A stretch of DNA of 64,000 bases from an uncultured Nitrososphaeraceae archaeon. GTDB lineage: Archaea > Thermoproteota > Nitrososphaeria > Nitrososphaerales > Nitrososphaeraceae. The notes below the pieces were generated by a model. The model was given only the letters and a program-made list of their open reading frames with translations. It did not search any database and was not told where the DNA came from. The position numbers were made by a program, and so were the translations under genes. Of the stretch, positions 21,103 to 64,000 are shown in pieces (positions within the stretch are counted from its first letter, which is position 1; each line of letters opens with the position of its first letter). Where the stretch lies: positions 160,001 to 224,000 of the forward strand of contig CAWGVG010000026.1 of assembly GCA_963825865.1 (NCBI GenBank). Reading direction: 5' to 3'.

Positions 21103-21121
21103 TTAATGCCCTGCAATACTA
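21103..21121 (+). promoter_or_regulatory. Weaker copy of the shared island promoter motif upstream of nnrD
   Basis: TTAATGCCCTGCAATACTA, 15/19 to consensus GCAWTRCASTGYAWDCCTA. Confidence 0.35.
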
Positions 21122-21145
21122 TGATTATGATGTGAACTGTGTATC

Positions 21146-22110
21146 ATGCCTGAAGAAATAATATCAGTTACCCCAAAGCTCATCCGAGAGATTTTACCTC
21201 CACGTCTAGTATACTCGAAAAAAGGAGACAACGGCATAGTCCTTGTCATTGGCGGAAGTGGAATCTATCACGGTGCACCATTGCTTAGCACCTTAACTGC
21301 TTTGAGATCGGGAGTTGATCTTGTTTATACAGCAGTTCCAAAGTCAAATGTTGCACTTCTGAGATCTTTCTCCCCTAATGTCATAGCCTTGCCTTTTCCT
21401 AATGACAGATTTACCAGGCGATCTGCTAAGCAGTTGCTAAAAATGCTCCCAAAGAAACCAGATGTTGTTGCTATAGGAATGGGTATGGCTATAGAAAAGC
21501 CAGCATCTTTGGTATATATGGTAAAAGAATTAAAAAACAGGAAACAAAGTTACTGCTAGATGCTTCTGCTCTTATACCAGAAATTCTTGATCATATATCT
21601 GGAACTGATACAATTGTCACTCCACACTTTGGAGAGTACAAAAGACTATTTCAAAAGGAGAAGAATTATTGTGATGAGATAATGGATACAACAACAACTA
21701 CAATACAGGAACAAGCATCAAATGCATACAACTTGGCAAAAAAGTATGGAATCACAATAATTCTCAAAGGAAATAATAATATTATTTGTAATGGTAGTCA
21801 TCCAGAGAAGCATGATGAGGAAGAGGAGAAACCTTTAGCAGTGATTAAGAGGACTACGCCTGCAATGACTGTAGGTGATTGTGGCGATGTCCTATCTGGT
21901 GTAGTAGCAGGATTGCTTACAAAGATGCAAGATTCTTTTTCTGCATCAATTTCAGGTGTTTATCTTTGTGGAATAGCAGGAAGTTTAGCATATAAAAGAG
22001 TAGGATTGCACATGGTTGCAACTGATTTGATAGAAGAATTACCTAATGCTATGAAAACATTTGACAAAATCAATTCTAAACCGCAACCTTTTTCTAAAGT
22101 GAGAGAATGA
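21146..22110 (+). CDS. nnrD: ADP-dependent NAD(P)H-hydrate dehydratase, frameshift near 21540
   Basis: KGDNGIVLVIGGSGIYHGAP, LLDASAL, TPHFGEY, ILKG, GDVLSG. Confidence 0.9.
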
Positions 22111-22312
22111 GACAGGTATAATAATAAAATCAGCTAAGAGGATTTTCAGTTTTTCTTAATAATATCCACGCAATTAGTCTTTGGCATTATCCTTTGAGAA
22201 GTATTATGAAACGCCGTACTACAATACAATCTCCAGTCAACATAATAGAATTATACAGCTAGCTGAAGACACTATTTAACATACCATCATCATTAATTAG
22301 TTGTGCCGCCAT

Positions 22313-24332
22313 TTATGAGATAACGATTCTTGCATCAAGTACTTTACATCCCATTCCTTGCTCGAAAACTATTAGTGGATTGATTTCTATCTCTTGTATT
22401 TCGGAAAAATCTGTAACAAGTTGTGACATACGTTGTATGCATTCAACTATGGATTCTATATCTGATGGTTCCTCTCCTCTTGCTCCTAAAAGGATCTTGT
22501 TGACTTTTGTTGATTCTATCATATGGCGTGCACCCAATTCCTTTATTGGTGCAAGTCTAAAAGAAACGTCTCTAAAGATTTCTACATATATTCCTCCTAA
22601 TCCAAACATAAGCAAAGGGCCAAACTGATGGTCACGTTTCATTCCTATGATGACTTCCTTGCCATTTCTTATGAACTCCTGAATGTTAATTCCTACTATA
22701 CTTGCATCAGCTTTTGCTTTTCTAACATTCTGCATTATTCTTTGAAATGCATCTCTTACTTCCTGAGCATTTCTCAAATTAAGTTCAACACCTCCGACAT
22801 CAACCTTGTGCACAATATCTGGCGAAGATATTTTGAGTACAACAGGATAGTCAATCTCTTCAGATAAATTAACGCAATCGTCTTCATTGGTCGCTAACCT
22901 GGATTTAGGAATCTGAAATCCATAAGATTTTACTATTTGCATTGCTTCAGTTTCGTGTACATAATTTCTTCCTTTTTCCTTGACTTTAGCAAATAATGTT
23001 CTAACCTCATCTTTGGAGACGTCAAATTGTTTGATTCCTGTCCTTGGTCTTGCTATCCAAGATCTGTATTCTTGCATAGCAACAATAGCTCTTGCTGAAG
23101 ATTCAGGAAAAGAGTACTGTGGTATTTTATTTTCATCAAGTTTCGCTAAGGCATTTTCAATTCCAGAAATTGCCATCATACAAGACAAAATTGTTTTTTC
23201 TTTGAATTCCTTGTTTATCTTTATCGTGATTTCAGCCAAGGATTCCATATCAAGCATCATCTGCGGAGTAGATATGACAATGCATGAATCCACGTTCGGA
23301 TCTCCAAGTACAGCTCTGAGTGCATTTTCATATCTCGTATGATCTGCATCGCCAATTATGTCAATTGGATTGATTAGTGATGCTGTTTTTGGAAGCATTT
23401 TTCTAAGTTCATTGATAGTCTTTTCGCTTAATTTGCTCAGCTTCAAATTATATTTTGCTGCCGCATCTGCAACTATTATGGCAGGACCTCCTGCGTTTGA
23501 AACTACTACGGTACCAACACCTCTTGGAATTGGCTGGTACGCAAACGCTATTGCATAGTCAAATAACTCTTCTAAAGTTTCAACCCTTAGGACCCCGCTC
23601 TGCGCAAAAATCGCTTTATATGTTTCTTGAGAGCCTGCTAACGCACCTGTATGTGATGCGATAGATTTAGCTCCAATAGTGGATTCTCCTACCTTCAGTG
23701 CAAGTATAGGTTTTCTTTTCTCTATTTCTCCCGTCACATAAGAAGAAATTTCTATAAATTTTCTACCATCGACCAGATCTTCAATGTACATTAAAATGAC
23801 TTCCGTAGAATCATCATTTCCAAGCATAGTAAGGAGATCATTTTCGTTCAGATCTGCCTTGTTTCCTAAACTAATCACTTTTGAGAATCCCATATTCCTC
23901 ATTTTTGCATATTCGAGCATAGCGACACAAATTGCGCCACTCTGAGAAACAAGTGCTATGCTACCAGACTTTGGCATTCCTTTGGTAAAACTTGCATTTA
24001 ACGAAACATACTTTGAATCCAGCAGAAATTATGACTGCGGCCCTTACTCCTTTCTTACCACAGTCTTCCGTTACTTGAGGCACAATACTGCTTGGAGTAA
24101 CTATTACTGCAAGATCGATAGGGTAGCCTATATCAAGTATATTTTTGTAACACTTTAAACCCAATATTGTATCACTTGAAGGATTAACAGGATACAATTT
24201 GCCCTTGAAACCTCCAGACAAGATATTAGCTATAACAGCATTGCCAACGCTGCCTTCTCTATTTGATGCACCTATAATCGCCACACTTGTAGGAGAGAAT
24301 ATATTTTCAACAGTCATAGATAGATAAGACAA
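22313..24332 (-). CDS. ADP-forming acyl-CoA synthetase (acetate-CoA ligase alpha+beta fusion) with an internal deletion at ~24010
   Basis: VAIIGAS, IISAGFK, VSQSGA, SLGNKAD, ASHTGALAG phospho-His, ATP-grasp HKVDVGGV. The expected GPNCLG segment is missing. Confidence 0.9.
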
Positions 24333-24682: not shown

Positions 24683-24707
24683 GCTTGCAGTGCAATGCAC
24701 AACATTC
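24683..24707. promoter_or_regulatory. Shared island motif GCTTGCAGTGCAATGCACAA-C-ATTC
   Basis: 20 bp identical to 44164-44183; lies just before TATATG and the CBS gene. Confidence 0.75.
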
Positions 24708-24747
24708 GAATATATGTCATTATAGAATCAAATGATCAGAATAAGAG

Positions 24748-25300
24748 TGTGAGTATTGAATCAATTCCAGTATCTAGTCTTATGAGTAAAAGCGTGAAAA
24801 CAGAAACATCAGATCAAAATATCCGGGCAGTTTGTAGAATAATGCATGAAAACAATATTGGAAGTGTAGTTATTGTAAATCATGGTAATGACGACAAAAA
24901 CAGCAATAACAACAATAAACCAGTAGGCATAATCGCAGAAAGAGATATTGTACGGATAATAGGAACACTAGAGCCATCTTTACTCAAAGTACCTGCACAT
25001 GAACTAATGAGCAAACCATTGATTACAATATCCCCAAATAACTCCGTTAAAGAGGCAATGCATACTATGCAAGTGAAGAATATCCGTAGAATAGTAGTAG
25101 TTGAAAAAGAAGGAAAAGGTAATAATAACAATAAGATGGTTGGAATAATCACCAATAAAGACATATTCAAAGCAATAATGAAAAATCAGTCTGATACCTA
25201 GTATATTAAACGTTGAATTACTAACACAACACAAACCTGTGTATGAACAATTTACTGAATATTGGTTTGGTGACATTCTTCATAGGCGCAGATATCATTT
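24748..25300 (+). CDS. CBS-domain protein (C-terminal frameshift; start approximate)
   Basis: MHENNIGSVVIV...VGIIAERDIVR and KNIRRIVVV...VGIITNKDIF CBS pair. Confidence 0.88.
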
Positions 25301-25345: not shown

Positions 25346-25660
25346 ATGTCTAAAACCAGTTCTGGTTCAGATCAATACAATAAAAGTGTATTTCCTTTTT
25401 ATAGTAGATTTTCCATAAATATCTTTAAAGCTTTTGCTCGAGCGTTATCAAACTCAACACAATTTAACACAGATGTTGTGGCTGAAAAGGATGATCTAGT
25501 AGCGCCAAACTCTAGTAAGCCTCTTAATAGTGCATTAACAGAAAGTCATGACAAAAGCCTGATTGAATTTAACTCAGGACACGTTGGCCTGATGATAGGA
25601 AAAAAAGCTCATAAAGAACTCTGGCCCAAAGTAGGAGAATGGATAAAGAACCACTCATAA
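25346..25660 (+). pseudogene. Internally deleted paralog of phaC (first ~40 aa fused in frame to last ~60 aa)
   Basis: The N-terminus matches the start of 33147-34602 (RALSxSTQFN) and the C-terminus matches its end (KDDLV...GHVGLMIGK.AHKELWPKVG.WIKNHS). Confidence 0.85.
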
Positions 25661-25869
25661 ATAAGATCGCATTTTAATATAAGATGGCATTTTCCCACCA
25701 AGATTGTGAAGAACGCCCTTTTTATAACCGTAGCATTAATTGGAAATAAAATTTTTAGATTACCAAATCGCTTTTTAGAGGAGAGTTTAGATTGGGTACT
25801 TGGCATTGAGATGGAAGTTATCTTCAATGGCTAATGAAGATGAGAAGTTATTGCTGGCGAAATAGTGCA

Positions 25870-26005
25870 GACCTCAGAGAGAAGAATCTCGATTTGATGG
25901 TGGTTGGAACAAGAGGAAGATCAGGATTTAAGAAACTATTACTTGTAAGTGATGCATTTTCAGTAGTAACTTATGTACATTGTCCTGTTATAGTAGTAAT
26001 GCGAC
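25870..26005 (+). pseudogene. Universal stress protein C-terminal remnant
   Basis: DLMVVGTRGRSGFKKLLL...VVTYVHCPVIVV. Confidence 0.75.
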
Positions 26006-26035
26006 TGGAAGTGGTGATGGTAATGGTCATCATTA

Positions 26036-27058
26036 CTAATGTTGCGTTGGAGACACAGACAATACTTGGATTCGGCTATTATCACGATCGACGAGGTATC
26101 CTTTACCAGCTAACCCTAAGTCAAAATCAACTGAATTATGTAGATGACCACTAGTAGCTATGCCAAGAGGCCCCAATTTATTGATGAATTTGCCATCTTG
26201 ACTAAATTCCTGTATGCGATCATTGCCACTATCAACTACCCACACATGACCTATTGCATGATCTACAAATACATCAGTTGGAAAATACAGCTGACCATTA
26301 CCTCTACCAAGAGAACCCCAAGACATAATGAATTTGCCATCTGGGGTAAACTTATCAATATGGTTATTGCCAAAGTCAGCTACATATACATTACCAAATC
26401 CATCAACATCAAGACGACTTGGGTTAACAAATTGCCCTTCTCCTGTACCAAAAGAGCCGAAAGACATAATGAATTTGCCATCTGGGGTAAACTTATCAAC
26501 ACGGTTATTTCCAGTATCAGATACGTATACGTTACCTGTCTTAAGATCTACTGCAATACCGGTAGGAGTGATAAACTGTCCTGGGCCAGAGCCAGAAGAA
26601 CCCCATTTTGTAATGAACTTACCATCAGTTGCATTAAACTCCTGGACTCGTGCATTAGCTCCATCTGTCACATATATGTGACCTCGACCCTCATCTATGG
26701 CAGCCTCTATTGGGCTATTGAACTGTCCTGGGCCAGAGCCAGAAGAACCCCATTTTGTAATGAACTTACCGTCTATTGCATTAAGCTTTTGTATACGGTT
26801 ATTTCCAGTATCAACTACATACACATTACCTTTAAAGTCTAAATCTATACCTGATGGACTATCAAACTGACCATTACCTGATCCACGGGAGCCCCACGTA
26901 TTAACAATAGTCAGCGCATAAGCATATGAGGACATAGTAGCTGTAATTAAAAGCACAATTTGTACTATTGCTACTGCTCCTGATAATAAGATCCGCCTGG
27001 TGTTATTGTTGTTAAATTTTTCTGTTGATTTAGACCATAGAAGATAATCTATAATCAT
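26036..27058 (-). CDS. NHL-repeat six-bladed beta-propeller protein with N-terminal signal/TM helix
   Basis: Repeated WGSxGSGxGQFxxPxGI...VYVxDTGNNRI; near-identical internal DNA repeats at ~26321/26462 and ~26575/26721. Confidence 0.92.
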   Translation of the reverse strand: MIIDYLLWSKSTEKFNNNNTRRILLSGAVAIVQIVLLITATMSSYAYALTIVNTWGSRGSGNGQFDSPSGIDLDFKGNVYVVDTGNNRIQKLNAIDGKFITKWGSSGSGPGQFNSPIEAAIDEGRGHIYVTDGANARVQEFNATDGKFITKWGSSGSGPGQFITPTGIAVDLKTGNVYVSDTGNNRVDKFTPDGKFIMSFGSFGTGEGQFVNPSRLDVDGFGNVYVADFGNNHIDKFTPDGKFIMSWGSLGRGNGQLYFPTDVFVDHAIGHVWVVDSGNDRIQEFSQDGKFINKLGPLGIATSGHLHNSVDFDLGLAGKGYLVDRDNSRIQVLSVSPTQH

Positions 27059-28103: not shown

Positions 28104-29123
28104 CTACAAGAATTCAAGATATGACTCTGCTAGTTTTAAATGGTCTTCTGATTCTCTAACATATTCCATTCTTTTGTTTGTGAATATTTTTTCGTTTCTT
28201 GCACTGAAAAGAGATACTTTGGCTCTTACACACGCTTTGTAACACATTAAAAAGTAAACTAATCCTGATAATTTAACATCATTGCTTTTCATTATATACT
28301 GTGAAATGAAGTATTTCCTAAGGTCGTCTCTTTTGTGATAGTCCAAGTCCATAGAAAGATGCGCCACATCTTCTGCAACGTCCGCATATCTTAAAAAGTC
28401 ATTGAATTCTATTCTATCATATAGATAAAATTTATTTTTTATGATGAAAATATTTTTCAGATACAAATCACCATGTATATCGCGAATTCTGTTTCCTGCA
28501 ATTCGACTATAAAATAAGGCATCATTATTTTTAATAAATGAATTTAGTTTCTTCTCAAACTTTGAATCGACTGTTGACTTTAACTTTGCAAGAGTCTGAA
28601 AATTCTCAGCAATCTTTTTTTTCATGAACTTTGGCTGACCAAAACACTTAATTGTATCATTTGTTGGTGTCAGGCGATGGAATTTAACTAGTGTTTCTGT
28701 TAGGTTTCCAACAGTTTCTAGACCAACTTTGCCTGCAGCAATAAGGTTATCCATACGAAATTCCTGCGGCATCTGTCTCATCTTAAGCGCATATTCTACT
28801 GCTTTTCCGCTTTCTTGTAGATTTACCATTTTAACAATGTTACTATTTTCTTCTTTGATGATTTTTACAACTTCTATATACATACTGCCACACAGGGTTT
28901 TGTTTAATATCAATTCTTTCTCACAAGTTTTTCTTCTCTTTGCCAATGTGGAAAAATCGAGAACTTTACCAAATTTTAGTGCCTTTTTTATCTTATATGC
29001 GTAGGATCCGGTAAGACATACCCAGGAGATATGAGTTTCTTCTATCTTGATATTTGATACCTTATGGGAGTATACACTTTTTTCTAGAAGAGCTGAAATT
29101 AATTTTTGTTGATTTGAACTCAA
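28104..29123 (-). CDS. Aminoglycoside-phosphotransferase-like kinase (N-terminal half of the Rv2004c-type bifunctional family)
   Basis: ETHISWV, AYKIKK, LDFSTL, IRDIHGDLYLKNI, YDRIEFNDFLRYADVAEDVA. Confidence 0.88.
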   Translation of the reverse strand: MSSNQQKLISALLEKSVYSHKVSNIKIEETHISWVCLTGSYAYKIKKALKFGKVLDFSTLAKRRKTCEKELILNKTLCGSMYIEVVKIIKEENSNIVKMVNLQESGKAVEYALKMRQMPQEFRMDNLIAAGKVGLETVGNLTETLVKFHRLTPTNDTIKCFGQPKFMKKKIAENFQTLAKLKSTVDSKFEKKLNSFIKNNDALFYSRIAGNRIRDIHGDLYLKNIFIIKNKFYLYDRIEFNDFLRYADVAEDVAHLSMDLDYHKRDDLRKYFISQYIMKSNDVKLSGLVYFLMCYKACVRAKVSLFSARNEKIFTNKRMEYVRESEDHLKLAESYLEFL

Positions 29124-29632
29124 TTTTTTGTTTCATTTTTTAATATTCGATTCGCTATATCTATTGAGTTCTTATTTGCAGACTGTTGACTTGTATCAAC
29201 TACAATATGCTTTTCTTTTATTGATTGATATCTCATTCTCATCTTTTTGTAGATAGAAATATCGGCATCTGAATAATCATTTTTTCTGTTTCTCAGTCTT
29301 GAAATTGCAATATGTTCAGGGCAAGTGCATTCAACGATACTTATTTGTGGTGATGAGATCAAATTCAACTTTTTCTTTAACTCTTTTCGAGATTTTTCTG
29401 TATTGAAAGTAGCATCAAGGATGCAATTTATTCCCGCATCATTCAAATATTTTGCTAACAACAACATGACATCGTAAATTAACTTTTTTTCCTGTTTTCT
29501 ATAGGTTGGCTTTGATATCAGTTCCTTTCTGATCTTATCTGTAGATAGAATAACTGCTCTAATTAACGGTGCGAGCTCCTTTGCTAGACTGGTCTTTCCG
29601 ACGCCAGGCAAACCACAAACAATAATTATCAA
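29120..29632 (-). CDS. AAA_33-type P-loop kinase
   Basis: CGLPGVGKT Walker A, STDKIRKEL, ILDATF, SDAD; overlaps the start of the APH-like gene. Confidence 0.9.
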   Translation of the reverse strand: MIIIVCGLPGVGKTSLAKELAPLIRAVILSTDKIRKELISKPTYRKQEKKLIYDVMLLLAKYLNDAGINCILDATFNTEKSRKELKKKLNLISSPQISIVECTCPEHIAISRLRNRKNDYSDADISIYKKMRMRYQSIKEKHIVVDTSQQSANKNSIDIANRILKNETKN

Positions 29633-30007: not shown

Positions 30008-30439
30008 CTATCTTACTATGACAACCGGGCACTTTGCATAATGAGTAACCTTATATGAAGCACTTCCCATGAGAAATTCTTTGGAAGCTTTAACTCCTCT
30101 GCTACCTATCACTATTGTATCTACTTTTTGTTTATCTGCTATACGTAATATCTCTTCTGCAACATCATTTCCTCTGGACTCGATGACATCGATAGAGGTA
30201 ATTACTGATGATTCCTTTGCTCTTGACTTGTATTTTTGCAACATCTCTAGATCTCTTTGTTCTAATTCTTTCAAGATCGAATGGCCAATACTAACGAATT
30301 CTTCGAGCACATGTACAATTAGTAATCCAGATCCACATTTTTTAGCCAGATAAGATGCATATTCAAAAGCCTTTTCTGCGTACTCAGAACCATCAACAGC
30401 AACAAGAATTTTTGATATCATTTGCTTATTATTTTGCAC
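30008..30439 (-). CDS. Universal stress protein
   Basis: ILVAVDGS...IVIGSRG...MGSASYKVTHYAKCPVVIVR. Confidence 0.95.
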   Translation of the reverse strand: MQNNKQMISKILVAVDGSEYAEKAFEYASYLAKKCGSGLLIVHVLEEFVSIGHSILKELEQRDLEMLQKYKSRAKESSVITSIDVIESRGNDVAEEILRIADKQKVDTIVIGSRGVKASKEFLMGSASYKVTHYAKCPVVIVR

Positions 30440-31150
30440 ATCTAGCAGATATATGTGTGTGAATTACATATTATAAATTTAATTTGAGTTAATTTGCTTT
30501 CTTCTCACTCACATTCACATCTATACTATATGGTCAAAGTAAATGTGCAATAATGTAACCTGTAAGCAGTTTACCATTGTCTCCTATCTCCTTCAAGCAG
30601 ACCACTACCAATGTGAATTCTATCTATATGTTTTGACATTTCAGCTTTATCTTTGAACTGTGATTGACAATAAGGACAAATTATTTTTGTTGCCTCTCCT
30701 TCAATTACATTAGCAGGCAATTCAACTTCAGCAAGGTCTAACTTATCGCTTGGAACATTTCCTACTATGGACTTAAGGGTTATAATTCCTGTAATACTAT
30801 TTCCTCCCGCTTTCTTTACTGCCAATCTTCTAATGTGTTTGGTTCTCATCAATAGTACTGCATCTTTAACGGATTCTTCTTCAGCAATGGTAATTAGTGG
30901 AGAACTCATTATGTCTTTCAATGTGACCTTAAAGGGGCCTTTATTTTCAGCTACTACACGATATAATATGTCCCTTTCAGTTACAATTCCAATCGGCTCA
31001 TTTGAATTCTTGCTAGTAACCAGAACACTCAAAACATCTTTATCTCGCATTAATTTTGCTGCTTCAGCAACAAGGGTGTCTTCAGATAGAGTTACATAGT
31101 TTTTTTCAGCAATACTTTCAACCTTTTGCGATAGATAAGAATTAGCATAC
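30036..31150. repeat. Copy A of a duplicated CBS-ZnF + USP module (copy B at ~37917-39100)
   Basis: Co-linear, highly similar DNA including the intergenic spacer. Confidence 0.9.
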
Positions 31151-31152
31151 AT
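30571..31152 (-). CDS. CBS-pair protein with a C-terminal C2H2 zinc finger
   Basis: IGIVTERDIL CBS motif; CPYCQSQFKDKAEMSKHIDRIH. Confidence 0.9.
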   Translation of the reverse strand: MYANSYLSQKVESIAEKNYVTLSEDTLVAEAAKLMRDKDVLSVLVTSKNSNEPIGIVTERDILYRVVAENKGPFKVTLKDIMSSPLITIAEEESVKDAVLLMRTKHIRRLAVKKAGGNSITGIITLKSIVGNVPSDKLDLAEVELPANVIEGEATKIICPYCQSQFKDKAEMSKHIDRIHIGSGLLEGDRRQW

Positions 31153-36815: not shown

Positions 36816-36906
36816 ATGGTATATAAGTTAATTGCTACTAGGATGCAGTCTTAATGTCGCGATTGTTATATCTTTATCTACCTACATCTTACTGATAAGA
36901 AAAAAA

Positions 36907-54106: not shown

Positions 54107-54383
54107 AGATATATCTCCATTGTGTCATAGTAATAATATGCTCAGATATATCTCCCCGTTTAGCCATTTTTTAGTAGTAGTTAGCACAGAGAGTGCCATG
54201 CACTGCGTAAATAATAACAACGATTCACTTTGCAACCAATACAGGGAGAAAGATTTCCATCATTACCGATTTAAAGATCCTGCTTTTTAGCTACTGTTAT
54301 AATCTTTGCCTGTGCTAGTAGTTGTCTATAACAAGAGAAAAAAAAGAAAGCAAGTAAAAAGTCCTTCATAACATGTTGTCTTG

Positions 54384-55034
54384 CTATTCTATGTTTATCG
54401 GCTTTCCTTTGGGTTTTGCCTGTTGTTTTTTGTCAAATATTATTTCAAGTATTCCATTTTTGTAAGCTGACTTGGCTGTTTCGATATCTGTTTCAGGAGG
54501 AATCTCAACAACCTCCCGGTATTTTCTTTTCCCTGGATCAGTGGTTGTTACCTCTACTGAATTACCATAAACATTTACCCTGATATTCTCTTTGTTAACA
54601 CCTGGCATTTCTACTATTACCTTGACTTCTCTATCCGTTGTTGTTACATCTGCCAAAGGCTCTCTTTCAGATGATATAAGGGGCCTAGCAGTGAGAAAGC
54701 CACCTCCTCTACTATTACTGAATTGTGATTTAACATTACCAAATTCTCTTATCCTAGGTTTACCATCAGGTCCAATTGTCATTGAATATCCATAAACGAA
54801 GGGCCCATACTCTCTCACCTTACCTCCAGGTCCTTCATATTCTTTTATTAAATCCTTTGGTGCCTTAGTCTCTATCTCTTTAAACTGTTCTTCAAATTGT
54901 CCTTCCATTTGTCTTCTCATCTCTTCCAAACCTCTGAACATTTCGCCAAAACCAAATTGCCCTCTGGCTCTACTACCACCAAGGAATCTTCTAAACCAAT
55001 CAAATGGCTCTATATCGTCGCGTTCAGAATTCAA
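54384..55034 (-). CDS. hsp20: Archaeal small heat-shock protein Hsp20
   Basis: GPFVYGYSMTIGPDGKPRIREFGN, REPLADV, EMPGV, YKNGILEI. Confidence 0.95.
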   Translation of the reverse strand: MNSERDDIEPFDWFRRFLGGSRARGQFGFGEMFRGLEEMRRQMEGQFEEQFKEIETKAPKDLIKEYEGPGGKVREYGPFVYGYSMTIGPDGKPRIREFGNVKSQFSNSRGGGFLTARPLISSEREPLADVTTTDREVKVIVEMPGVNKENIRVNVYGNSVEVTTTDPGKRKYREVVEIPPETDIETAKSAYKNGILEIIFDKKQQAKPKGKPINIE

Positions 55035-55259: not shown

Positions 55260-56525
55260 TTGATTAACACAAAAAAAACGACACGAGTTTTGATGGTTAC
55301 CACCGAGTATCCTCCTATGCAAGGAGGTGTAGGACGATATTCAGCTAATTTGGCAAATTCACTCCAGAAACTTGGATTGAATGTTTTTGTTGTATGTAAT
55401 GAAAAGGGTAATGGGGATATTTATGGACTATCTCCTTCCAATACACACAATTCCGATGTCCTTTTAAAGGCAATAGCCGAATCAAAACCGGATATAGGAC
55501 ATGTACAGTATGAACACGGGCTATATGGTTTGGTTTTGGATCCTATAAATCCTAATAAGATTAGTACCAACATAGATTCTTTTTATGCTAGGTGTAATAT
55601 TCCAATTGTCACAACGTTTCACTCTGCGTATAATTTCAAGCAGTGGATGGAATTGGCTGCAACAACAGAAGGCAAACATGGAATTAACAAATATATGCAT
55701 CTCCCTATCAACTATTGGAAACGCCTTTTAAATTATCGGTCCTTCAGTCGGCTCAACAAAGAAAAGCTTGCAATGAGCCGGGCAGGCATAGTTTTTTCAC
55801 AATATCTATCAAACCTCATTGGTGGCAGCAGCAATTGTTGTGATGTAATTTATCATGGTGCTGAACCATCTTCTAAAATAACTTCTCCCCCTTCCAAGAG
55901 ACATGCAAGGGCTAGGTTTTCACTCCCAGAAGGACCACGAATTGCTTTGGCACTTGGTCATAAGACAGCTACAAAAGGTTGGGATATCTTCGAGAAAATG
56001 AATATACCCGATGGATGGGTTGTAGTGGCCAATGCCTCTAGAAATCACTACAATAAGGAGAACATTAGTTTACGATTTAACAACAAGCAGAGCCAAAGTT
56101 TAATCGATCTACAAGGGGATTTCATTACTGAGGAAGATCTATCGTATCTATTATATGCTGCAGACGCTGTGATCCTGCCATATAAGGTATGTTCCGGGTC
56201 AGGTGTAATGTTTGATGGTCTTGCCCATGGGCTGCCATTTGTTGCAACGCAGTTGGGCTTTTTCAAGGAATTTTCTACAAAAGGATTAGGCATAACTATC
56301 AAGAGAGATCCTGCTGAATTTGCCTACGCTCTCAAAGCTCTTGATAAAGACTATGAAGCATACTTACAAAGAGTCAATAGCTTTAAGGAAAAACTAAAGT
56401 GGGATCTAATTGCTGCTCAACATGCTTCACTATATAGACGGATTATAAATCCAGGAACACAATTAGTTATAAACACTTTTAATTCAAAAAAAAGCATAGA
56501 TAATCAATTAGATAAGGGACATTAA
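55260..56525 (+). CDS. GT4-like (GT-B) glycosyltransferase
   Basis: EYPPMQGGVGRY, VTTFH, ADAVILPY...SGVMFDGLAHGLPFVAT. Confidence 0.88.
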   Translation: MINTKKTTRVLMVTTEYPPMQGGVGRYSANLANSLQKLGLNVFVVCNEKGNGDIYGLSPSNTHNSDVLLKAIAESKPDIGHVQYEHGLYGLVLDPINPNKISTNIDSFYARCNIPIVTTFHSAYNFKQWMELAATTEGKHGINKYMHLPINYWKRLLNYRSFSRLNKEKLAMSRAGIVFSQYLSNLIGGSSNCCDVIYHGAEPSSKITSPPSKRHARARFSLPEGPRIALALGHKTATKGWDIFEKMNIPDGWVVVANASRNHYNKENISLRFNNKQSQSLIDLQGDFITEEDLSYLLYAADAVILPYKVCSGSGVMFDGLAHGLPFVATQLGFFKEFSTKGLGITIKRDPAEFAYALKALDKDYEAYLQRVNSFKEKLKWDLIAAQHASLYRRIINPGTQLVINTFNSKKSIDNQLDKGH

Positions 56526-56693: not shown

Positions 56694-57733
56694 ATGAAGA
56701 CAAAACTAGCCATAAATGGTTTTGGAAGGATAGGTAGGAGTTTTATCAGAGTTGCCTTAAAAGATAGAGAATTCATGCAATTAATTGACATAGTGGGCAT
56801 AAATGATACGGCAGATGCCAAGACTCTAGCACATCTTTTAAAATATGATTCAGTATTTGGAAGATTTGACGGTACGGTAGAAGTTAATGACAATGGTAAT
56901 ATTGACATTCTTCTGATAAACAACTTACCAATAAGTGTTATTTCTGAGAAAGACCCAGCCAGCTGCCTTGGAAGAGCAAGGGTATAGATATTGTCCTAGA
57001 ATCGTCAGGAAAATTTAATGATGCAAAAGAAGCACAAAAACACATTGAAGCAGGCACAAAGAAAGTCATTATTTCAGCACCAGCTAAACAACCAGATGCA
57101 ACAATATTAATGGGTATAAATGACAAATCGTATAATAGCGATAAACATAATGTCATTTCAATGGCATCTTGCACCACAAATTGCTTGGCTCCAGTAATCA
57201 AAGTTCTCAATGATACGTTTGGTATTGAGAGTGGGTATATGACCACCACTCATGCATATACAAATGATCAGCGTCTTTTGGACTTACCACACAAGGATTT
57301 AAGAAGGGCAAGAGCGGCAATGATGTCCATAATCCCAACAACTACTGGAGCAGCAAAGGCCATAGGTGGTATAATCCCGGAGTTAAATGGGAAGATAGAC
57401 GGTATGGCGTTACGAGTTCCTGTAAGCGATGGTTCGATAGCAGATATGGTCCTGAAATTGAAAAGGGACGTCACAAGAGAACAAGTGAACAACGTATTAA
57501 AGGAAGCATCTGAAACTAAATTGAAAGGAGTTATGGGGGATACAGAAGAGCCCATCGTGTCAGCAGATATTATCGGTGATCCACATTCCTCGATTGTTGA
57601 TGGTCTAAGCACTATGGTTTTAGGAAATAACAGCAATATCGTAAAAGTATTATCTTGGTATGACAACGAGTGGAGTTTTGCCTGCAGGCTAGTCGACCTA
57701 ATAAAGTTAATTGCCCATAAGATGCAGCCTTAG
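56694..57733 (+). CDS. gap: Type I (bacterial-type) glyceraldehyde-3-phosphate dehydrogenase, frameshift near 56965
   Basis: AINGFGRIGR, LLKYDS, ASCTTNCL, TTTGAAKA, WYDNEW. Confidence 0.95.
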
Positions 57734-58030
57734 TGGCGCTATTGTTATATTTTTATCAATCTTTTATTCTACCGATAGAGATTCTCCATAGTGTTTAATG
57801 AATTTCATTTTTTTATACCTGTAAATGGCGAATAAAGTCTCTGGAATCCGTAACCAATCCTCAATATTCCTTTGCCTTATCCCGAGTAGTATTTTCTTCC
57901 TCATTATATCGCTCGTGGTAAAAGCCATGAGAATGTACACATACACTTTTACTTCGCTCTTTTAAAAATATACTGGCTATTTGTATTATACTTGAAGCAA
58001 GCGCGCATAAACGGGAACATATAACTACTA

Positions 58031-59195
58031 AGTGAAGTGTCTGAATTTATGTCGTTATTTGTTCATTACATAACCTAGATTTGGAAATAGTTAAAGCTTA
58101 GCAAAGGAGATATTTTCATTCTGTGAATCATCCTTTCAAACTCAAACTTACCATAGGACAGAGGAACAAATTAAAGTCATTTATGAAGAATACGGGTAAC
58201 AAAAAAGAATACCGCAGGCTACTGGCTATACTCCAAAAAGCTGAAGGTAGAACTTACGAAGACATAGCAAATGAACACGGAGTCAGGCAGCAGGTCTGTA
58301 CAGAGATGGGTTGCTGCCTATATCCAAAGTGGGATAGATAGAATAAAGATGAAGAAACCTGGCGGAACAAAATCTGGCATAACAGATGAAAACAGAGAGA
58401 TTATTCTATCAGCATTATTTAACGACCCGCACATCTTTGGTTATCTTAGAAATACATGGAGTCTGAGATCACTTGCAAACTGTCTGACAAATGAGCTAGG
58501 AATCCCAATCAGTTTCAAGCACATGCAGCGAATAACAAAAGATTTAGGAGTTAGGTGCAAAAGGCCAAAACTGGAATTGCTACATGGAGGAGAGGATTAT
58601 GAAGAGGGAAAAGAGAAAGTGCAAAACTACAAACAGATAGCTTCAGCTCTGAAAAAAAGGGAGTTGTAGTAGCATTTGAAGATGAGACTATTATAACACA
58701 GAAACCTTGTATTCGAAAATCCATGAGTTTTGAAGGTGAGCAACAAAGGATAGAACATACTGGTAGTAGAAAGAAGTTCTCTGCATACATATCCATGGTA
58801 TGGCCTGAAGAGAAATTAATGACGTATGATTTCTATGATAAAATGGATTCTACGAATACTATCGACCATCTAGAGAATCTCAAGACAAACATTATGAAAA
58901 ATGATTGGTGGAAAAGACTGGTACTCATATGGGATAACGCTTCATATCATGTAAGCCTAATGGTACGGAATTATATCAATGCACAGAGAAAGAAGACTGG
59001 GCTGACCATAATCCACCTTCCAAAGAAAGCACCATACCTAAATCCGAATGAAAGGAAAGTAAACCAGCAAATAAAGTCAGATGTATGTGCGAATAGATTC
59101 TATGAACATATGGAAGACCAGAAAGCTGCAGTATCAGAATATTTGGACAAACGATTTGGAAGATGGTATGACGACATTAGTTATGACACTTGACT
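58031..59195 (+). mobile_element. IS630 family insertion sequence with ~26-bp imperfect TIRs and TA duplication
   Basis: Left AGTGAAGTGTCTGAATTTATGTCGT versus right reverse complement AGTCAAGTGTCATAACTAATGTCGT; flanks cTA and TAg; A7-G slippery run at ~58652; FEDE, WDNASYH, LNPNE DDE motifs. Confidence 0.92.
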
Positions 59196-60384
59196 TAGGA
59201 GCAATATATTCTATTCTATTAGCGTAAATCGTATTGATTTGATCAAGACCAGGATCAATCCTCAAAGGGTTTTTAGCATTCATTATGTTATTATCATATA
59301 TTTTATTGGCAGAGGAATTGCTAACTAAAACAATACCCGATTTGCCATTTGAAACTGTATTGTTGTATATCTCATTATTGTGTGACCGAGAAACGTGAAT
59401 AGCCCTATTCTGATCATATATATAATTGTCCCTGGCAATAGAATTAGTCACATTTCTACTAAATGCTATTCCAGATCCTGTGTTATTGTAGACTACATTT
59501 TTTTCAAAAAGTATGTTATAGCAATCTTGCGAACAGATTATAGCTGTACCATTATTATTATATACAGTGTTATTTCTAATTACCATATCATGAGTTCCTG
59601 TATGTGGATCTATGCCATAATGACCCATATCATGAACTTTATTGTTTTCAATAACCATGCCTCCTACACCTACTGAATAAAAGCCAAAATATAGATGGTG
59701 TATATCATTATTTCTTATTACACTACCATGTCCTGCCAAATGATAATGAATTCCAGATGTTCCAGTACCCCATCCTCCTTCATACCCTAAATATGCAATC
59801 TCTGAGTTTGTAATATCTGTTGTACCTGTTGCTTCCTTTTCTACTCTAATATATGGCCTTGGAGCTCCTGGATGAGTTATTTTTCCAGAAGTTTCTCTTG
59901 AACCATAACTTTGACCATAATCATTTGTTTGTGGATTCCATGAAGTTACCTTTACCGAATCTATCTTCAGGCTACCAAATACTTCTATTGGATATGCAGT
60001 CGTTCCATCTGCTATTATTTTTAACCATGTAGTATCTTTGGAATCAACGATAAATGTGGCGTCATTAGCAATTGTGATCCCTGCATTTAGCAGCCAGACT
60101 CCGTCGGCTTGTTTGTCTAAAACACTATCATCGTTAAGCTGATTGTCTATATCACTTAGACTTGTTGATTTACATCCTATTGTAATTATTCTACCAGAAG
60201 AGTCATAGCTAATGCAGCTTTCATTAGAGGAAGTTGAATTAAGAGCATTAGACTCAGTGGTTATTGTCATCTCTTGTGCGACCGCAGGATCAATAAAAGC
60301 CAATAAAGTTAATGGAAGAAACGTAAATAAAACATATCTCAGAGGTGAAAAAAATGTTTTACTTTTCAAATGGACTGTTACCAT
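59196..60384 (-). CDS. Secreted right-handed parallel beta-helix protein (AlgG/NosD-like), 3' end interrupted by IS630
   Basis: Signal peptide; SEIAYLGY, YFGFYS, YGIDPHTG, repeated IxNNxVYNN. Confidence 0.85.
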
Positions 60385-60947
60385 AATTTATCACAGCAGA
60401 TAAATAAGATTTGCTCACTTGAAGAGAATCCTTTAGGTGTGCCCTGTAATTGAGTAAGCAATAAGGAGGCAGACTTTGTCAAATTATAACAATATGTCGG
60501 TATTACGTCAACAACAATCACAAAAGAGTAGGAAGAAGGTAAAAAAAAGGAATCAATTTTGTCTTAAACCATTTTCCCAAATATAATATCTTTCCAAGAG
60601 CAATATCTACGCAGGCTTTATCTAGAGCCACCAGTCACAATAGTCCATAAGAAAAACGAGATGTTGAGAGTTTATGAACAATCTGACTTTATTGATTGGA
60701 AAGTAATCTCTTTTCCGGCATTTAACAGAGAAATTTATTCATAATAATAGAATCAAGATTCATACACCTGATTTTATTTTCATCAACATGAACTCCGCCA
60801 CTTAGTAGATAAATTCTGCTTTCTCAAGAAGAAAATTTTAGCATAGTCTCAAATGATAACTGTTGTGAGAAATCATATTCGACATGAGATATTAAGCTAG
60901 GTTGGTCTACTATAAATTAAAAACACCTCTTTTCAGTGCGACTTTGG

Positions 60948-61615
60948 TTACTCTGTTTTATCATCTTCAAACGCCTTCGGGAAATATTTTCTTATGACTT
61001 TGTCCATATCAATTTTCAGGAAAGTATAGATAATGATAATAGTAATCGAAACGCTAACAATTATTGATATTATAATATTGAATGGGTCAATGTTATTATT
61101 ATTATTGTATGCAAACCTATCAATAAAGGGTTTACCTAAATAAACTGCTCCCCATATAACTATTTCATTTATAATGAGTTTACTTGCAAACGTAGAGATA
61201 ACAAATTTCCATGGACTGTATCTTGCAAGTCCTAAAGAGACATACACGATATCGTCTGGTATTGGTGTTATTGCAGCAATAATTGCGCCTTCCAACCGTA
61301 CCTACTAGCTAATTTTTGAAGAGGAATTATTTTTTTCTTAATAGGGCTTCCTCTTTTAAGAAAGATATTGTGTCCATAATATATTGAATAAAAAATTATG
61401 GTCTTTGCTATAATTATTCCAATAGCACTACATACTGCAATAAAGTTTGGATTTAGTTTTTTATCAAATACTGATATAACAAGAATAGGATATACGGGAA
61501 TTGGGACGAATATCAAGATATTTGTAATAAAGCTTACAAGCAGTATTCCAAAATATACAAACTGATTATCTAGTAATTCAAATGGTACTATAGCGTCCTC
61601 AATATTAAATGCCAA
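60948..61615 (-). CDS. DedA/VTT (SNARE-associated) membrane protein, frameshifted
   Basis: IFVPIPVYP, AAITPIPDDIVYVSLGLARYSPWKF. Confidence 0.8.
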
Positions 61616-62124
61616 CGATAATCATGACTACAGAGACTCTTAAGTAGATTCCGAGGTATTGTAGCATTAGTGCTAGGATCAATTCCAGATGATCTTCCTC
61701 ATAGAGGTATTCTTGAATTCATTATTGTTAAATCACACACAAGTGGAAATATCCGCACCATAAAGACTAACTATTTCCACTAGATCGACCAAAACCAAAT
61801 TCGTGCTCAAAATTAGTTCAAAACTATCATAGCTAAATGGAGATGGAGGAAATAGTGGAAATATTTTACTAACTCTTGTTGCGAGGAATAAGGAGTACAT
61901 TGGAAGCATTAGTAATAACTGGAAATTAAAAAATTGGGATTAAGACATTTTTACCACAGTAGCATAAGAAGCATCTGGCAGCGACATAGCAACATTTCAG
62001 TGCATTCTTCCAATTTAAATAACCTTAATCCATACAGGACAAATTGAATGTGATTCGCAATTACCAAAAAAAATATTATTATATTTTGAAGTGATGTACT
62101 ATATTAAAAATAAAAAAGATAATC

Positions 62125-64000
62125 ATGAATCCACAAACAAAACCTGCAGAAGTAAGAGTAGATTTTTCATTTAAGAGAGAAGTATTCTTCATCGTTGCTG
62201 GAGCCCTGATGGGTGCCATAGTTATGGCAATTCCCTTTACCTTTCCTTTTACAGGACGTGGTTCAGGATATGCGCTCACGTGGATAGTATTTGGGCACAT
62301 TGTTGGTGTATATTCGCCCATCTCATCGGTTATTATTGCTGGAATATTAATTCACATAGTAACTGGTATCTCAATTGGTATAATATCTGGAGTATTTTTG
62401 TATAAGACAAACATCTTGAATATAAGTAAACCATCAAATGGTTTACGCTATGGATTATTAGTTGGTACTCTTGTTTATTTGATTTTTGCTATTCCAGTAG
62501 GGCAATTTCTTCTAAATCCAGAATTTGGACATACTTTGTCAAACGGTGGTAATGTTGGTAAAAATAACAATAATAATAATAACGTTAATGTCAATAACAA
62601 CATAGCAGGCTATAAAGAAGAAGAAAAAAGTTCAACAGGACAAAGCGGAGGAGGAGGAGTAGAAAGAGGAAAACAGGTAGAAAAGACCTAACAACATGAC
62701 AACAACGTTCTCAAATATTCAATTGAATTCTACAATCTATTCTATTTCGATTAACCTGCTATTTGGAATTACATTAGGCCTATTTTCTTCCTTTTTGTCA
62801 ATAAAGTTCGGCTCCAGATATAGATGTCCTGCTTGCGATATATCATTTTCAAGAATTGACATTCTTCAGAGTCATTTAGAGCATGTCCATGGTGACAAGC
62901 CAATAAATAGAAAAAGAATAGTTGTTTTAGGAGGAGGATTTGCAGGAGTCAGCTGTATTAAGAAAACTGCAAACGAAATTTCAAACTAATGTAGGTATTG
63001 AGATTACAATGGTAAGTAAGGATAATTACATGCTATTTACACCCATGCTTCATGAAGTAGCATCAGGAATGATAGAAACAAGGCATATTGTGACACCTAT
63101 CAGAGCATTTTGTAATAGGTCACGATTCTATTCTGCCATAGTAGAAGATATAGACCTAAAAAATAAGAAAGTTATGATTAGATCCTCCACATCCACAAGT
63201 AAAACTGATAGATTAATAGAGGATCATATTTCGGAATTGAACAGCACTAGGTCTTTGTATTACGATTATCTTGTAATAGCGTTAGGAAGTGAAACAAAGT
63301 TTTTTGGAATGTCTGATGCACAACAAAATGCATTTACTATAAAGAGCTTAGATGATGCGATAAATCTTAGAAATCATATTATATATTTACTTGAACAATC
63401 AGACCAATTGCCTGACAACGATACCGCCACTACCAGTAATAATACTTACAAAGATCTTCGAAAAAAATTGTTAACTTTCGTTGTAGTAGGAGGAGGTTTT
63501 GCAGGAGTAGAAACAGCAGGCGAAATAAATGATTTCGTTAAGGATTCTGCAAAAGATTATTACCATAATATAGATTCAAACAACATAAGAACTATACTAA
63601 TACAATCTGGTGACAGACTATTACCAGAAATGAGTGCAGAATTAGCCGCGTTTGCGTTAGAGAAACTACGTAATAGCGGAGTTGAAGTTATTCTCGATAC
63701 TCGCATAGTGGGGGCCACATCAAATAGTGTAAAGTTAGGTAATGGTACTATAATACCAACAAGGACAATAGTTTGGTCTGGCGGTGTATCTCCTAATTCT
63801 CTAATCGCTAATCTGCCATGCCAGCATGATAAGAGTGGAAGAATAGTTGTCGATAAATATTTGGAAGTATCTCAGTTTAGAAATGTTTATGCACTTGGAG
63901 ATTGTGCTTATATAATAAATCCTAATACAGGTAAAATATACCCTACTACAGCACAACATGCTATAAGAGAAGGTTCTGTTGTAGCAAAAAACATCGTTGC
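62125..64000 (+). CDS. Membrane domain + C2H2 zinc finger + type II NADH dehydrogenase-like flavoprotein; frameshifted, runs off the window
   Basis: TM helices, CPACDISFSRIDILQSHLEHVH, then VVLGGGFAG, FTPMLHEVASG, YDYLVIALG, VVGGGFAGVE, YALGDCA, TAQHA. Confidence 0.85.

Follow-up and report, generated by a model that had tools for sequence, protein, structure and literature searches.

Between positions 21103 and 64000 of the window analysed here (64,000 nucleotides, C26:160001-224000 of the uncultured Nitrososphaeraceae genome G000, where C26 is contig CAWGVG010000026.1), genes for universal stress proteins (USPs) and CBS-domain proteins lie together with a protein of predicted ribosome-hibernation fold, chaperone genes, polyhydroxyalkanoate (PHA) synthase genes and second copies of metabolic enzymes. 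We read this stretch, hereafter the island, as one copy of a partly conserved growth-arrest or energy-stress neighbourhood that is common to some other Nitrososphaeraceae genera, and we put the probability of this reading at roughly 0.55. Other genomes are given here as G001, G002 and so on, and contigs named without a genome are those of G000.

The G000 assembly comprises 4.98 Mb in 62 contigs with a GC content of about 0.35, an estimated completeness of 81.8% and an estimated contamination of 2.8%. Because an intact archaeal amoA gene is present on C11, G000 is assigned to an ammonia-oxidising archaeon, as an earlier note made from the letters of this DNA alone had supposed. Its genus is represented by no other genome among the 41 searched. 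Contigs from soil and rhizosphere metagenomes carry parts of the region at 99% identity or higher in 20 runs from eight studies, with no RNA run listed among those that contain it.

Gene content and extent of the island

The 50 open reading frames (ORFs) between 21146 and 63998 were scanned against Pfam, as were those of the left flank, for a total of 60 window ORFs. Every family that the earlier note had listed for the region was recovered, with the APH-like kinase and the CBS-HPF protein found by other methods. Since the left flank (1-21 kb) has unrelated content (NmrA-like, TetR, cyclase, an IS630-like element, TPR, GH5-like and metallophosphatase) and Pfam scans of the genome gave no USP or CBS match on C26 outside the window, the USP/CBS part of the island spans about 24.7-48 kb. 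The GC content of the island is the same as that of the genome. The USP and CBS loci are the following.

24695-25201 (+): CBS-pair protein, unbroken ORF (CBS E 5.6e-26, two stretches)
25834-26154 (+): USP C-terminal remnant (Usp profile positions 100-140 of 141 only)
30008-30439 (-): USP, unbroken (Usp E 1.2e-29, whole profile)
30571-31152 (-): CBS pair with a C2H2 zinc finger, unbroken (CBS E 3.3e-24; zf-C2H2_4)
31476-31995 (-): USP in two frames (Pfam matches at C26:191479 and C26:191840)
35278-35821 (+): USP in two frames (Usp profile positions 2-28 and 70-141)
37914-39144 (-): second USP plus CBS-finger module, with a frame break in each gene (tblastn, two frames each)
42228-42824 (+): putative CBS-HPF/RaiA protein, 198-amino-acid ORF, with homology over 42072-42824 (AlphaFold and Foldseek)
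47130-48016 (+): CBS protein in three ORFs, with one in-frame stop and one frame change (CBS matches)

Eight USP Pfam matches above the gathering score resolve into five loci (25834, 30008, 31476-31995, 35278-35821 and 37914-38473), one fewer than the six genes or remnants first counted, and only the locus at 30008-30439 is both full length and unbroken. The seven CBS matches make up four loci, which with the CBS-HPF protein gives the five CBS proteins originally proposed. The module at 37914-39144 is 82% identical in nucleotides to 30032-31196 and is thus a duplicate inside the island. Paralogues of the CBS-pair protein at 24695-25201 are found on C3 (69% amino acid identity) and C15 (52%). 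The two-frame reading of the other broken loci comes from alignment to homologues: the 179-amino-acid G001 orthologue of the USP at 31476-31995 aligns over residues 10-32 and 60-175 in different frames, a G012 reference aligns to the USP at 35278-35821 in two frames (a C15 copy of this gene is 98% identical in nucleotides), and a 209-amino-acid C3 paralogue of the CBS gene at 47130-48016 aligns over residues 1-169 and 169-206.

An exact 18-mer (19 nucleotides by eye) is found at 35138-35155 (-) and at 47003-47020 (+) and is absent from the rest of the genome. It lies about 120 nucleotides upstream of a USP gene in the one case and of a CBS gene in the other, with a possible GGAGG-ATG start inside it. 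We rejected this string as an operator and took it instead for what a duplicated 5' end left behind, with a shared site as the alternative.

Density of USP and CBS loci in G000

After merging Pfam matches by hand, 37 USP and 38 CBS loci were counted genome-wide. In simulations, at least five USP loci in some 43-kb window occurred with p ~0.01 and at least four CBS loci with p ~0.12, while none of 10,000 trials put nine or more of the 75 combined loci into 43 kb (p<1e-4). The density check proposed in the earlier note thus shows a combined excess. One duplicated module (82% nucleotide identity) supplies two USP and two CBS loci, so that the events are not independent and the excess is inflated. 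The cluster is non-random.

G000 is rich in paralogues and insertion sequences (IS) and has four or more USP/CBS clusters, the island among them. A cluster scan centred on the window was set aside as evidence of uniqueness because its queries had been taken from the window, which makes it circular. About 13 CBS and three USP loci lie at C3:154-198 kb; four USP loci lie beside Hsp20 at C5:58-69 kb, with GAPDH, ADH and CBS genes about 20 kb upstream; and C15 carries PhaEC with a USP gene, as well as a CopG-like, SnoaL, CBS and USP group. The possibility raised in the earlier note that these families are equally dense elsewhere therefore holds in part, given the C3, C5 and C15 clusters, with the combined density in the window still above chance. 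Nearly every island gene has paralogues elsewhere in G000 at 47-98% identity. For 11 island families, 22 of the 48 paralogues outside the window lie within 10 kb of a USP, CBS or Hsp20 locus, compared with 17% of the genome, although, with segments having been duplicated, the loci do not count as independent. Paralogues of control families (beta-helix and NHL) lie within that distance in 0 of 11 cases.

The C3 cluster (C3:154000-198000) is denser than the window and also holds Hsp20 and a 301-amino-acid CBS-HPF paralogue. It ends 5 kb from a 389-amino-acid tyrosine-integrase-like ORF (C3:203003-203566), and it is a better candidate than the window for a mobile or CBS-module cluster.

Recurrence of the neighbourhood in related genomes

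Besides the USP and CBS loci, the island contains a kinase pair and genes for chaperones, storage and metabolism.

21146-22110 (+): NnrD (NAD(P)HX dehydratase, Carb_kinase), two ORFs with a frame change near 21523-21538 (Pfam positions 1-79 and 140-241 of 242)
22313-24332 (-): ADP-forming acyl-CoA synthetase (ACS), two ORFs (CoA_binding, Succ_CoA_lig, Ligase_CoA_2, ATP-grasp_5)
25346-25660 (+): chimeric remnant of a PhaE N-terminus and a PhaC C-terminus (tblastn)
28104-29123 (-): APH-like kinase, 339 amino acids, unbroken (homologue names and ESM-Atlas clusters)
29120-29632 (-): AAA_33 P-loop kinase, unbroken (AAA_33 E 1e-21)
33142-34602 (-): PhaE-PhaC (putative class III PHA synthase), covered over its whole length, frame changing near 33834 (TIGR01836)
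36612-36825 (+): APH-like fragment (residues 190-277 of 339 only)
36907-37548 (-): isochorismatase-family gene, unbroken (Isochorismatase E 2.7e-39)
43375-43806 (-): phosphoribosyltransferase, ORF with the C-terminal part only (Pribosyltran positions 84-139 of 158)
44237-45894 (+): extra thermosome subunit in several frames (Cpn60_TCP1; 80% amino acid identity to the intact C39 copy)
48467-48777 (+): second AAA_33 kinase, fragment (residues 1-92 of 170 of the 29120-29632 protein, two frames)
52703-53647 (-): second-copy FBP aldolase/phosphatase (FBPase), without about 60 N-terminal residues (FBPase_3)
53631-54135 (-): Zn-ADH N-terminal fragment, abutting FBPase (ADH_N only; C3 and C5 copies 84-87% identical in nucleotides)
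54384-55034 (-): Hsp20, unbroken (Pfam; full length to the G001 island orthologue, 61%)
55260-56525 (+): GT4 glycosyltransferase, unbroken (Pfam; full length to the G001 island orthologue, 48%)
56694-57733 (+): type I GAPDH, frame change near 56955 (Gp_dh_N and Gp_dh_C)
60948-61615 (-): VTT/DedA-like membrane protein, one frame change (VTT_dom in both ORFs; C5 paralogue in two frames)
62125-63998 (+): membrane segment, C2H2-finger segment and NDH-2-like flavoprotein, continuing past the window end (Pyr_redox_2 E 8.4e-42)

In the complete genome G001, from another genus, many of these families are again found side by side. About 70 kb of it (1295-1365 kb) holds seven USP Pfam loci, PhaE-PhaC, type I GAPDH, GT4, FBPase, two Hsp20 genes and CBS genes, along with a CopG-like gene, an M50-CBS protease, NAPRTase and an SSF-USP transporter. 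Amino acid identity to the window is 60-68% for GAPDH, 48% for GT4 and 86% for FBPase, and seven USP loci in 57 kb are expected with p ~5e-5 by simulation. No mobile-element hallmark was found by Pfam in 20 ORFs of the G001 island. On contig C19 of G008, six USP Pfam matches lie in 32 kb, and about ten CBS or CBS-finger matches and CopG-like and SnoaL genes accompany them in about 33 kb. On contig C12 of G012, GAPDH, CBS, four USP genes (these in 27 kb) and an APH-like gene lie in 40 kb, and neighbouring genes are syntenic with this genome. USP clusters are thus general in the family. The synteny survey that had been proposed therefore turned up similar clusters in three other genera (G001, G008 and G012), and the wider gene set is not kept across the family. 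Because the genes of the G001 cluster map in G000 to the window, C3, C5 and C60, the alignments suggest that a single ancestral neighbourhood became multiplied or dispersed in G000. No description of a USP/CBS island in Thaumarchaeota or Nitrososphaera was found in the literature searched, supplements excepted; figures on CM clusters and phyletic distribution in the supplement of the HibA study may be relevant to this.

Type I GAPDH occurs in G000 only in the window and on C5, with a distant homologue on C21. Two full FBPase genes each are present in G000, G001 and G015 and one in most of the 31 genomes of the family, and in both G000 and G001 one of the two lies in the island. By these comparisons, the island FBPase and GAPDH genes are extra copies. 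Intact copies of several other broken or truncated genes exist elsewhere in G000 (thermosome on C39, FBPase on C60, NnrD on C8 and ACS on C21).

The CBS-HPF protein and its likeness to ribosome hibernation factors

The CBS-HPF sequence gave no match to a Pfam or other family and nothing relevant in a PDB sequence search. In the AlphaFold model of the 198-amino-acid ORF, residues 92-183 form a predicted HPF/RaiA-fold domain. The top 12 PDB matches retrieved by Foldseek for this C-terminal domain are all HPF/RaiA/pY or RafH hibernation factors, with a best E of 9.3e-6, TM scores up to 0.80 (V. cholerae HPF) and 21 matches at E of 0.001 or below. The assignment first made from the letters alone is thus borne out at the level of the fold. 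Full-length homologues are 311-342 amino acids long, and the window has no counterpart of roughly their residues 1-93; upstream homology ends at 42072. One CBS unit is modelled in the window ORF, and two Pfam CBS stretches are present in the 301-amino-acid C3 paralogue.

The archaeal hibernation factors HibA and AHA are described as having four CBS domains followed by a C-terminal HPF/RaiA domain (PMC13324472, Nat Commun 2026; PMC13728122, EMBO J 2026), with the four-CBS module of HibA at residues 1-269 and with HPF/RaiA-only forms mainly in DPANN and Nitrososphaerales (PMC13324472). The same source describes CBS-module (CM) genes as "often arranged in gene clusters", with such clusters in 10% of archaeal genomes. 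The window protein resembles these factors in its predicted order of a CBS module followed by a C-terminal HPF/RaiA fold, and the island resembles the CM clusters in its clustered CBS genes. In contrast to the four CBS domains of HibA, the window ORF has one modelled unit; its sequence matches no solved chain, and it is known from its sequence and model. Given the shared C-terminal fold but fewer CBS units, the model places the protein as HibA-like rather than as a member of HibA. With it, a shorter form from Nitrososphaeraceae would join the recently described hibernation factors of archaea.

The kinase pair

The APH-like and AAA_33 genes overlap by four nucleotides and form an overlapping operon. 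The APH-like protein had no Pfam match at E 0.01, its only and weak match being to APH(3') at E 0.084. Homologues nonetheless bear the name "aminoglycoside phosphotransferase family enzyme", and the closest clusters in the ESM-Atlas (score 0.98) carry APH (PF01636), in one case together with AAA_33. In bacteria, a fusion of APH and AAA_33 accounts for 15% of the members of an Atlas cluster. Eight of 24 other genomes of the family have the APH-like gene, and none of 16 genomes of the order's other families does. The gene is adjacent to an AAA_33 gene in G024, G011 and G013. Elsewhere it has a CBS-finger gene next to it or nearby (G011 and G002), a winged-helix gene (G024 and G019), an isochorismatase gene (G019), a CopG-like gene (G008) or USP and CBS genes (G012), and every one of these neighbour types is also a component of the island.

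Storage, metabolic and chaperone genes

The PhaC part of PhaE-PhaC matched TIGR01836 with E 2.5e-36 and 125 bits, against a cut-off of 365 bits, with the ORF being only a piece of the gene. A 519-amino-acid ORF of G001 aligns to PhaE-PhaC from end to end in two frames (residues 17-301 and 300-517), the PhaE-like part gave no family match, and a copy on C15 is 83% identical in nucleotides. In the chimeric remnant at 25346-25660, residues 1-44 resemble the PhaE-like ORF and residues 56-104 resemble the PhaC C-terminus at 33150-33296. We observed that PhaE-like and PhaC parts share one 519-amino-acid frame in G001 (L057:5735-7294; G001:C1, about 1340.7-1342.3 kb), which suggests a fused class III PHA synthase in the lineage of that genome.

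The NnrD-ACS segment has a 97.8%-identical copy on C42. NnrD itself aligns to its intact C8 paralogue (288 amino acids) over residues 3-130 and 126-286 in two frames, and its C42 copy is 97.8% identical in nucleotides. The window ACS gene is without about 110 nucleotides of the C42 copy, where the blastn match jumps from C42:35463 to C42:35574, and residues 112-146 of the intact C21 paralogue (715 amino acids) are absent from it. FBPase_3 is covered over positions 107-361 of 361 in the ORF and 60-361 in a six-frame scan, and the G001 and C60 references align from residues 62-65. The G001 GAPDH reference aligns over residues 9-90 and 90-346 in two frames, and the thermosome subunit gave three collinear frame segments and a short fourth match by tblastn. 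The three ORFs at 62125-63998 are collinear with C20:10149-11974 at 66-80% amino acid identity and may be one long fused gene split by frame errors. By eye, the GxGxxG motif of the NDH-2-like protein lies within the C2H2-finger segment ORF (62696-62989).

A nicotinate phosphoribosyltransferase (NAPRTase) gene is present both in the G001 stress cluster (L057:12668-14122) and at G000:C3:162635-164057. Taken with NnrD and the isochorismatase-family gene of the window, this gene may point to NAD repair and salvage as a theme.

Frame breaks in the G000 assembly

The reading frame changes at least once within about a dozen island genes: NnrD, PhaEC, three USPs, the second CBS-finger gene, thermosome, a CBS gene, VTT, GAPDH and NDH-2. 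Across the genome, 19 of 55 single-locus orthologues of G012 are split in G000, at about 0.40 breaks per kb. This count was limited to single-locus orthologues because adjacent paralogues (AtpA/AtpB and SufB/SufD) merge into one locus; an unrestricted count of 43 of 137 was discarded as inflated by them. The split genes include A-type ATPase subunit A and SufB (89-96% identical), an aconitase-family subunit and a glutamine amidotransferase. RpoB (Rpb2_6 domain) is a single locus in three pieces (C44:25097-26220), and AtpA (C28:25948-27673) and SufB (C22:55676-57072) lie in two or three frames. Since these indispensable genes are broken as well, the breaks are probably assembly errors.

Small differences between repeated or independently assembled sequences are similarly rich in indels. 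The alignment of 41 copies of an IS of about 1.05 kb has 48 singleton indel columns and 57 singleton substitutions, and over 8.1 kb, 33 gap letters and 38 substitutions separate the window from seven near-identical contigs of metagenome run X1. This comparison takes in the parts of the window that metagenome contigs cover. In all four metagenome runs the contigs have one T more than the window after 44340; with this base inserted in silico, the thermosome N-terminus is 90.5% identical to the C39 copy, compared with 52.8% before. The assembly has about 0.4-1 frame-breaking indels per kb. A homopolymer-type error model was rejected, as the frame breaks and the IS singleton indels lie mostly outside runs. 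USP Pfam matches are full length in nearly all cases in five relatives and in about a third of 47 in G000. Low ORF cover is also seen in the relative G012 (0.58), coding density in Nitrosocosmicus is given as 74-77%, and low ORF cover by itself is a lineage trait.

By our tally the island has about 16-19 breaks in 43 kb; as this is not above the genome-wide rate, the island is not a graveyard. Most single frame breaks are probably assembly indel errors and not gene decay; in window coordinates the single-base breaks lie near 21.53, 33.83, 35.39, 38.80, 44.34, 44.49, 44.56, 45.52, 47.71, 56.95, 61.29 and 62.95 kb. Structural junctions are placed at 53.64 kb (FBPase/ADH) and 24.01 kb (the gap of about 110 nucleotides in ACS), and fragments at 25.3-26.2, 36.6-36.8 and 48.5-48.8 kb. 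Judging from the alignments, some damage is nevertheless real, namely that to FBPase, ACS and the CBS-HPF N-terminus and the fragments of APH-like, AAA_33, PhaE-PhaC and USP genes, and the island copy in G000 may be partly non-functional. Calls of pseudogenes or gene loss from this assembly need read support.

Candidate regulators, mobile elements and other features

The remaining features of the island are small ORFs, candidate regulators and repeated elements.

39306-40646 (-): 446-amino-acid HTH/coiled-coil protein of a multi-copy family (weak HTH_23; 20 tblastn matches in the genome)
41434-42054 (+): CopG/RHH-like protein, 206 amino acids (weak CopG Pfam match)
42972-43166 (+): SnoaL-like small ORF (weak SnoaL Pfam match)
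51031-51324 (+): winged-helix protein (HTH_45), candidate local regulator (HTH_45 E 1.3e-8)
51530-52577 (no strand assigned): IS of about 1.05 kb, broken copy (42 genome copies at 94% nucleotide identity or higher)
58027-59197 (+): IS630-like element (DDE_3), three ORFs (Pfam)

CopG-like and SnoaL genes recur in the USP/CBS array on contig C19 of G008, a CopG-like gene recurs in the G001 island, and winged-helix homologues stand beside kinase genes in G024 and G019. From this recurrence in relatives, the CopG-like and winged-helix proteins would be the sole candidates for a local regulator. The Pfam scan of the 60 window ORFs, which took in ORFs from about 60-80 amino acids upwards within the window, gave no response-regulator, HisKA or HATPase family; the earlier statement that the window has no DosR/DosS-type genes holds for these ORFs. 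Promoters were compared by k-mers (7-9) and palindromes, using 25 island and 102 family-wide upstream regions and 2090 controls. No motif common to the island promoters was found by this enrichment, which is crude and can miss weak or degenerate motifs. The enriched strings were rejected as an island operator, since they are the coding start of one USP subfamily and a palindrome, outside the island. The palindrome, TTTTAACTAAAA, has 12 sites in the genome compared with about seven expected, and about eight of the 12 lie directly upstream of one USP subfamily, mostly 10-24 nucleotides from the ORF start (for example C5:60299, C46:63751, C55:8257, C61:38461 and window 29938). This string may serve the subfamily as a promoter or operator element.

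The HTH/coiled-coil gene sits between the duplicated USP and CBS-finger module and the CopG-like gene. A copy on C57 is 87.5% identical, and the gene may be part of an undescribed repeated element. The IS of about 1.05 kb has a 312-amino-acid frame that is open in 14 of 42 copies, and a 70-amino-acid ORF of the window copy matched no Pfam family. Because contigs of three of four metagenome runs join 51528 to 52576 without the IS, this insertion is polymorphic in nature. IS630-like elements (DDE_3 and HTH), of which a second window copy lies at 10608-11730, number 13, mostly at 98-99% nucleotide identity. All share the three-ORF layout and none has one long frame, which may reflect a programmed frameshift or a shared defect. 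No tRNA is present in the window, and none of 22 Phage_integrase matches in the genome falls within it, the nearest being at C26:120994. Outside the island, a GH5 cellulase-like gene in two ORFs (13598-14980, -) belongs to a family that is unusual in an ammonia-oxidising archaeon.

Weighing the explanations

As a growth-arrest or energy-stress neighbourhood, the island would act as follows. A shortage of ammonia or oxygen would lower the adenylate charge, and nucleotide-binding USP and CBS proteins would change state. The CBS-HPF protein would block the small ribosomal subunit, as HibA and AHA do, and some stand-alone CBS proteins may act on ribosomes likewise. Hsp20 and the extra thermosome subunit would hold proteins, PhaE-PhaC would store carbon and reductant, and second-copy isozymes (FBP aldolase/phosphatase, type I GAPDH, the NDH-2-like protein and ADP-forming acyl-CoA synthetase) would adjust central metabolism, which NAD repair and salvage genes (NnrD and the isochorismatase family) would tune likewise. 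In G000 the neighbourhood would have been amplified into several diverged copies and invaded by IS. The island genes appear to form many separate transcription units. As no common control element was found, a regulon stays hypothetical, with low oxygen as one possible trigger. A bolder version, which we consider speculative and on the whole unlikely, is a convergent "hibernation island" in the soil ammonia oxidisers of the family, with genes induced together on energy or oxygen shortage under the control of island-encoded CopG-like and winged-helix proteins in place of a two-component system, and with its amplification being an adaptation of this lineage of large genome size to changeable soils.

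Several observations weigh against reading the stretch as such a neighbourhood. The APH-like gene is limited to the eight family genomes given above and is missing from G001, and around it no USP was found by tblastn with window proteins in the 20-27 kb searched on G008:C40 and G002:C5. FBPase lies within 5 kb of Hsp20 in at least three of 31 family genomes, the wider set is not family-wide, and related genomes can keep a gene order in common in the absence of any functional tie. Duplication of USP/CBS modules accounts for much of the statistical excess. The NHL, beta-helix, GT4 and membrane proteins of the region have no evident stress role, and the promoter comparison gave no shared motif. 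Several island copies are truncated (FBPase, ADH, the CBS-HPF N-terminus and ACS), and, among the indels listed, an assembly error is shown directly only at 44340 and partly at 44488 (in part of one run).

Duplication and synteny without functional coupling is a serious rival, if one that we judge rather unlikely: the region would be plastic, a pile-up of USP/CBS duplication and IS, with metabolic genes present by ancestral gene order. The paralogues of nearly all island genes, the USP and CBS-finger module duplicated inside the island, the two IS families with 42 and 13 copies, the real fragments of APH, AAA_33, PhaEC, USP, ADH and FBPase, and the size of G000 (4.98 Mb, compared with 1.2-4.2 Mb in the relatives searched) all fit it, as does the generality of USP clusters in the family. 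Nevertheless, the same unrelated families recur together in G001 and on C5 and C3 of G000 (on C5 as GAPDH, ADH, USP, Hsp20 and VTT), the beta-helix and NHL controls gave 0 of 11, and the island copies are extra isozymes and not housekeeping copies. A single co-regulated hypoxia or dormancy regulon, induced as a block as a counterpart of DosR or lxa, seems to us improbable. It would account for the overlap of families with lxa and DosR members, among which Rv2004c was confirmed, and is in keeping with the fused APH and AAA_33 cluster in bacteria, the HPF fold of the CBS-HPF C-terminus and the NAPRTase gene of the G001 island. UspA, HSP20, CBS and PII genes are also reported to be up in two sponge Thaumarchaeota, a lineage distant from G000, under in situ hypoxia (10.1101/2023.02.27.530229, preprint). 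On the other hand, the 60 ORFs contain no response-regulator or histidine-kinase family, no promoter motif is shared, the genes are spread over both strands in many units, G000 has at least three further USP/CBS clusters, and USP, CBS and Hsp20 proteins answer many stresses.

That the island is cargo or the remains of an integrated mobile element is very improbable in our estimate. UspA, CBS and CopG genes are frequent in thaumarchaeal integrated elements, IS elements and a multi-copy HTH gene are present in the region, and only 5 kb separate the C3 cluster from a Phage_integrase gene (C3:203003); yet the window has no tRNA and no Phage_integrase, its GC content is that of the genome, its neighbouring genes are syntenic with G012, and the 20 ORFs of the G001 island are free of mobile hallmarks. 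We hold out similarly little prospect for a genuine graveyard of decaying pseudogenes formed by large-scale inactivation. About a dozen island genes are split, some truncations are structural, ORFs of at least 100 amino acids cover 56% of the genome, completeness is 81.8%, and the breaks are not at long homopolymers, all of which such decay could explain. Against it, RpoB, AtpA and SufB are broken at the same rate, independent contigs carry the base that restores the thermosome gene, USPs are intact in complete or high-quality relatives, and low ORF cover is shared by G012 and Nitrosocosmicus.

Ammonia-oxidising archaea dominate nitrification in many soils, where they face long spells without substrate or oxygen, and how they enter and leave dormancy is little understood. 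If the stress-neighbourhood reading is right, its HibA-like silencer, USP/CBS sensors, chaperones, polymer storage and spare isozymes would provide a gene set to look for in soil metatranscriptomes and in cultured relatives.

Comparison with known systems

The lxa locus of Burkholderia cenocepacia is described as an unbroken cluster of tens of genes that holds six USPs, an alpha-crystallin, Zn-ADH, PHA synthase and electron-transfer proteins, with low-oxygen induction shown by transcriptomics and deletion (PMC3721108); its content had been given correctly in the earlier note. Similar to lxa, the 43 kb of the window hold five USP loci, Hsp20, PhaE-PhaC and ADH_N (as a fragment) in one contiguous stretch. 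The archaeal cluster differs in adding CBS proteins, the CBS-HPF protein, a thermosome subunit, gluconeogenic isozymes and the kinase pair. The gene orders are not homologous, and lxa is bacterial.

The DosR regulon of M. tuberculosis includes many USPs, an alpha-crystallin, a CBS protein, a PRTase and an HPF-like protein. What defines it is a two-component regulator together with a DNA motif; its genes are scattered, and pncB2 is DosR-regulated. The regulon also includes the phosphotransferase Rv2004c (review PMC8701281), as the earlier note stated. The likeness to the island is an overlapping list of families (USPs, alpha-crystallin, CBS, PRTase, HPF-like and APH/P-loop kinase) at the family level only; in the window the kinase is two genes, and no regulator (60 ORFs) or shared motif was found. 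Of the proposal that the island mirrors this regulon, the overlap of families stands. The resemblance is best taken as an analogy and not as homology between regulons, made up of common stress families and a few specific ones.

Among integrated elements of Thaumarchaeota, UspA (16), CBS (13 + 9 + 9) and CopG/RHH (9) are listed within the 20 commonest arCOGs (PMC6563490). The island likewise gathers UspA, CBS and CopG/RHH genes together, but, unlike these elements, the window lacks an integrase, a tRNA target and a shift in composition, and the content of the island is syntenic with chromosomes of other genera.

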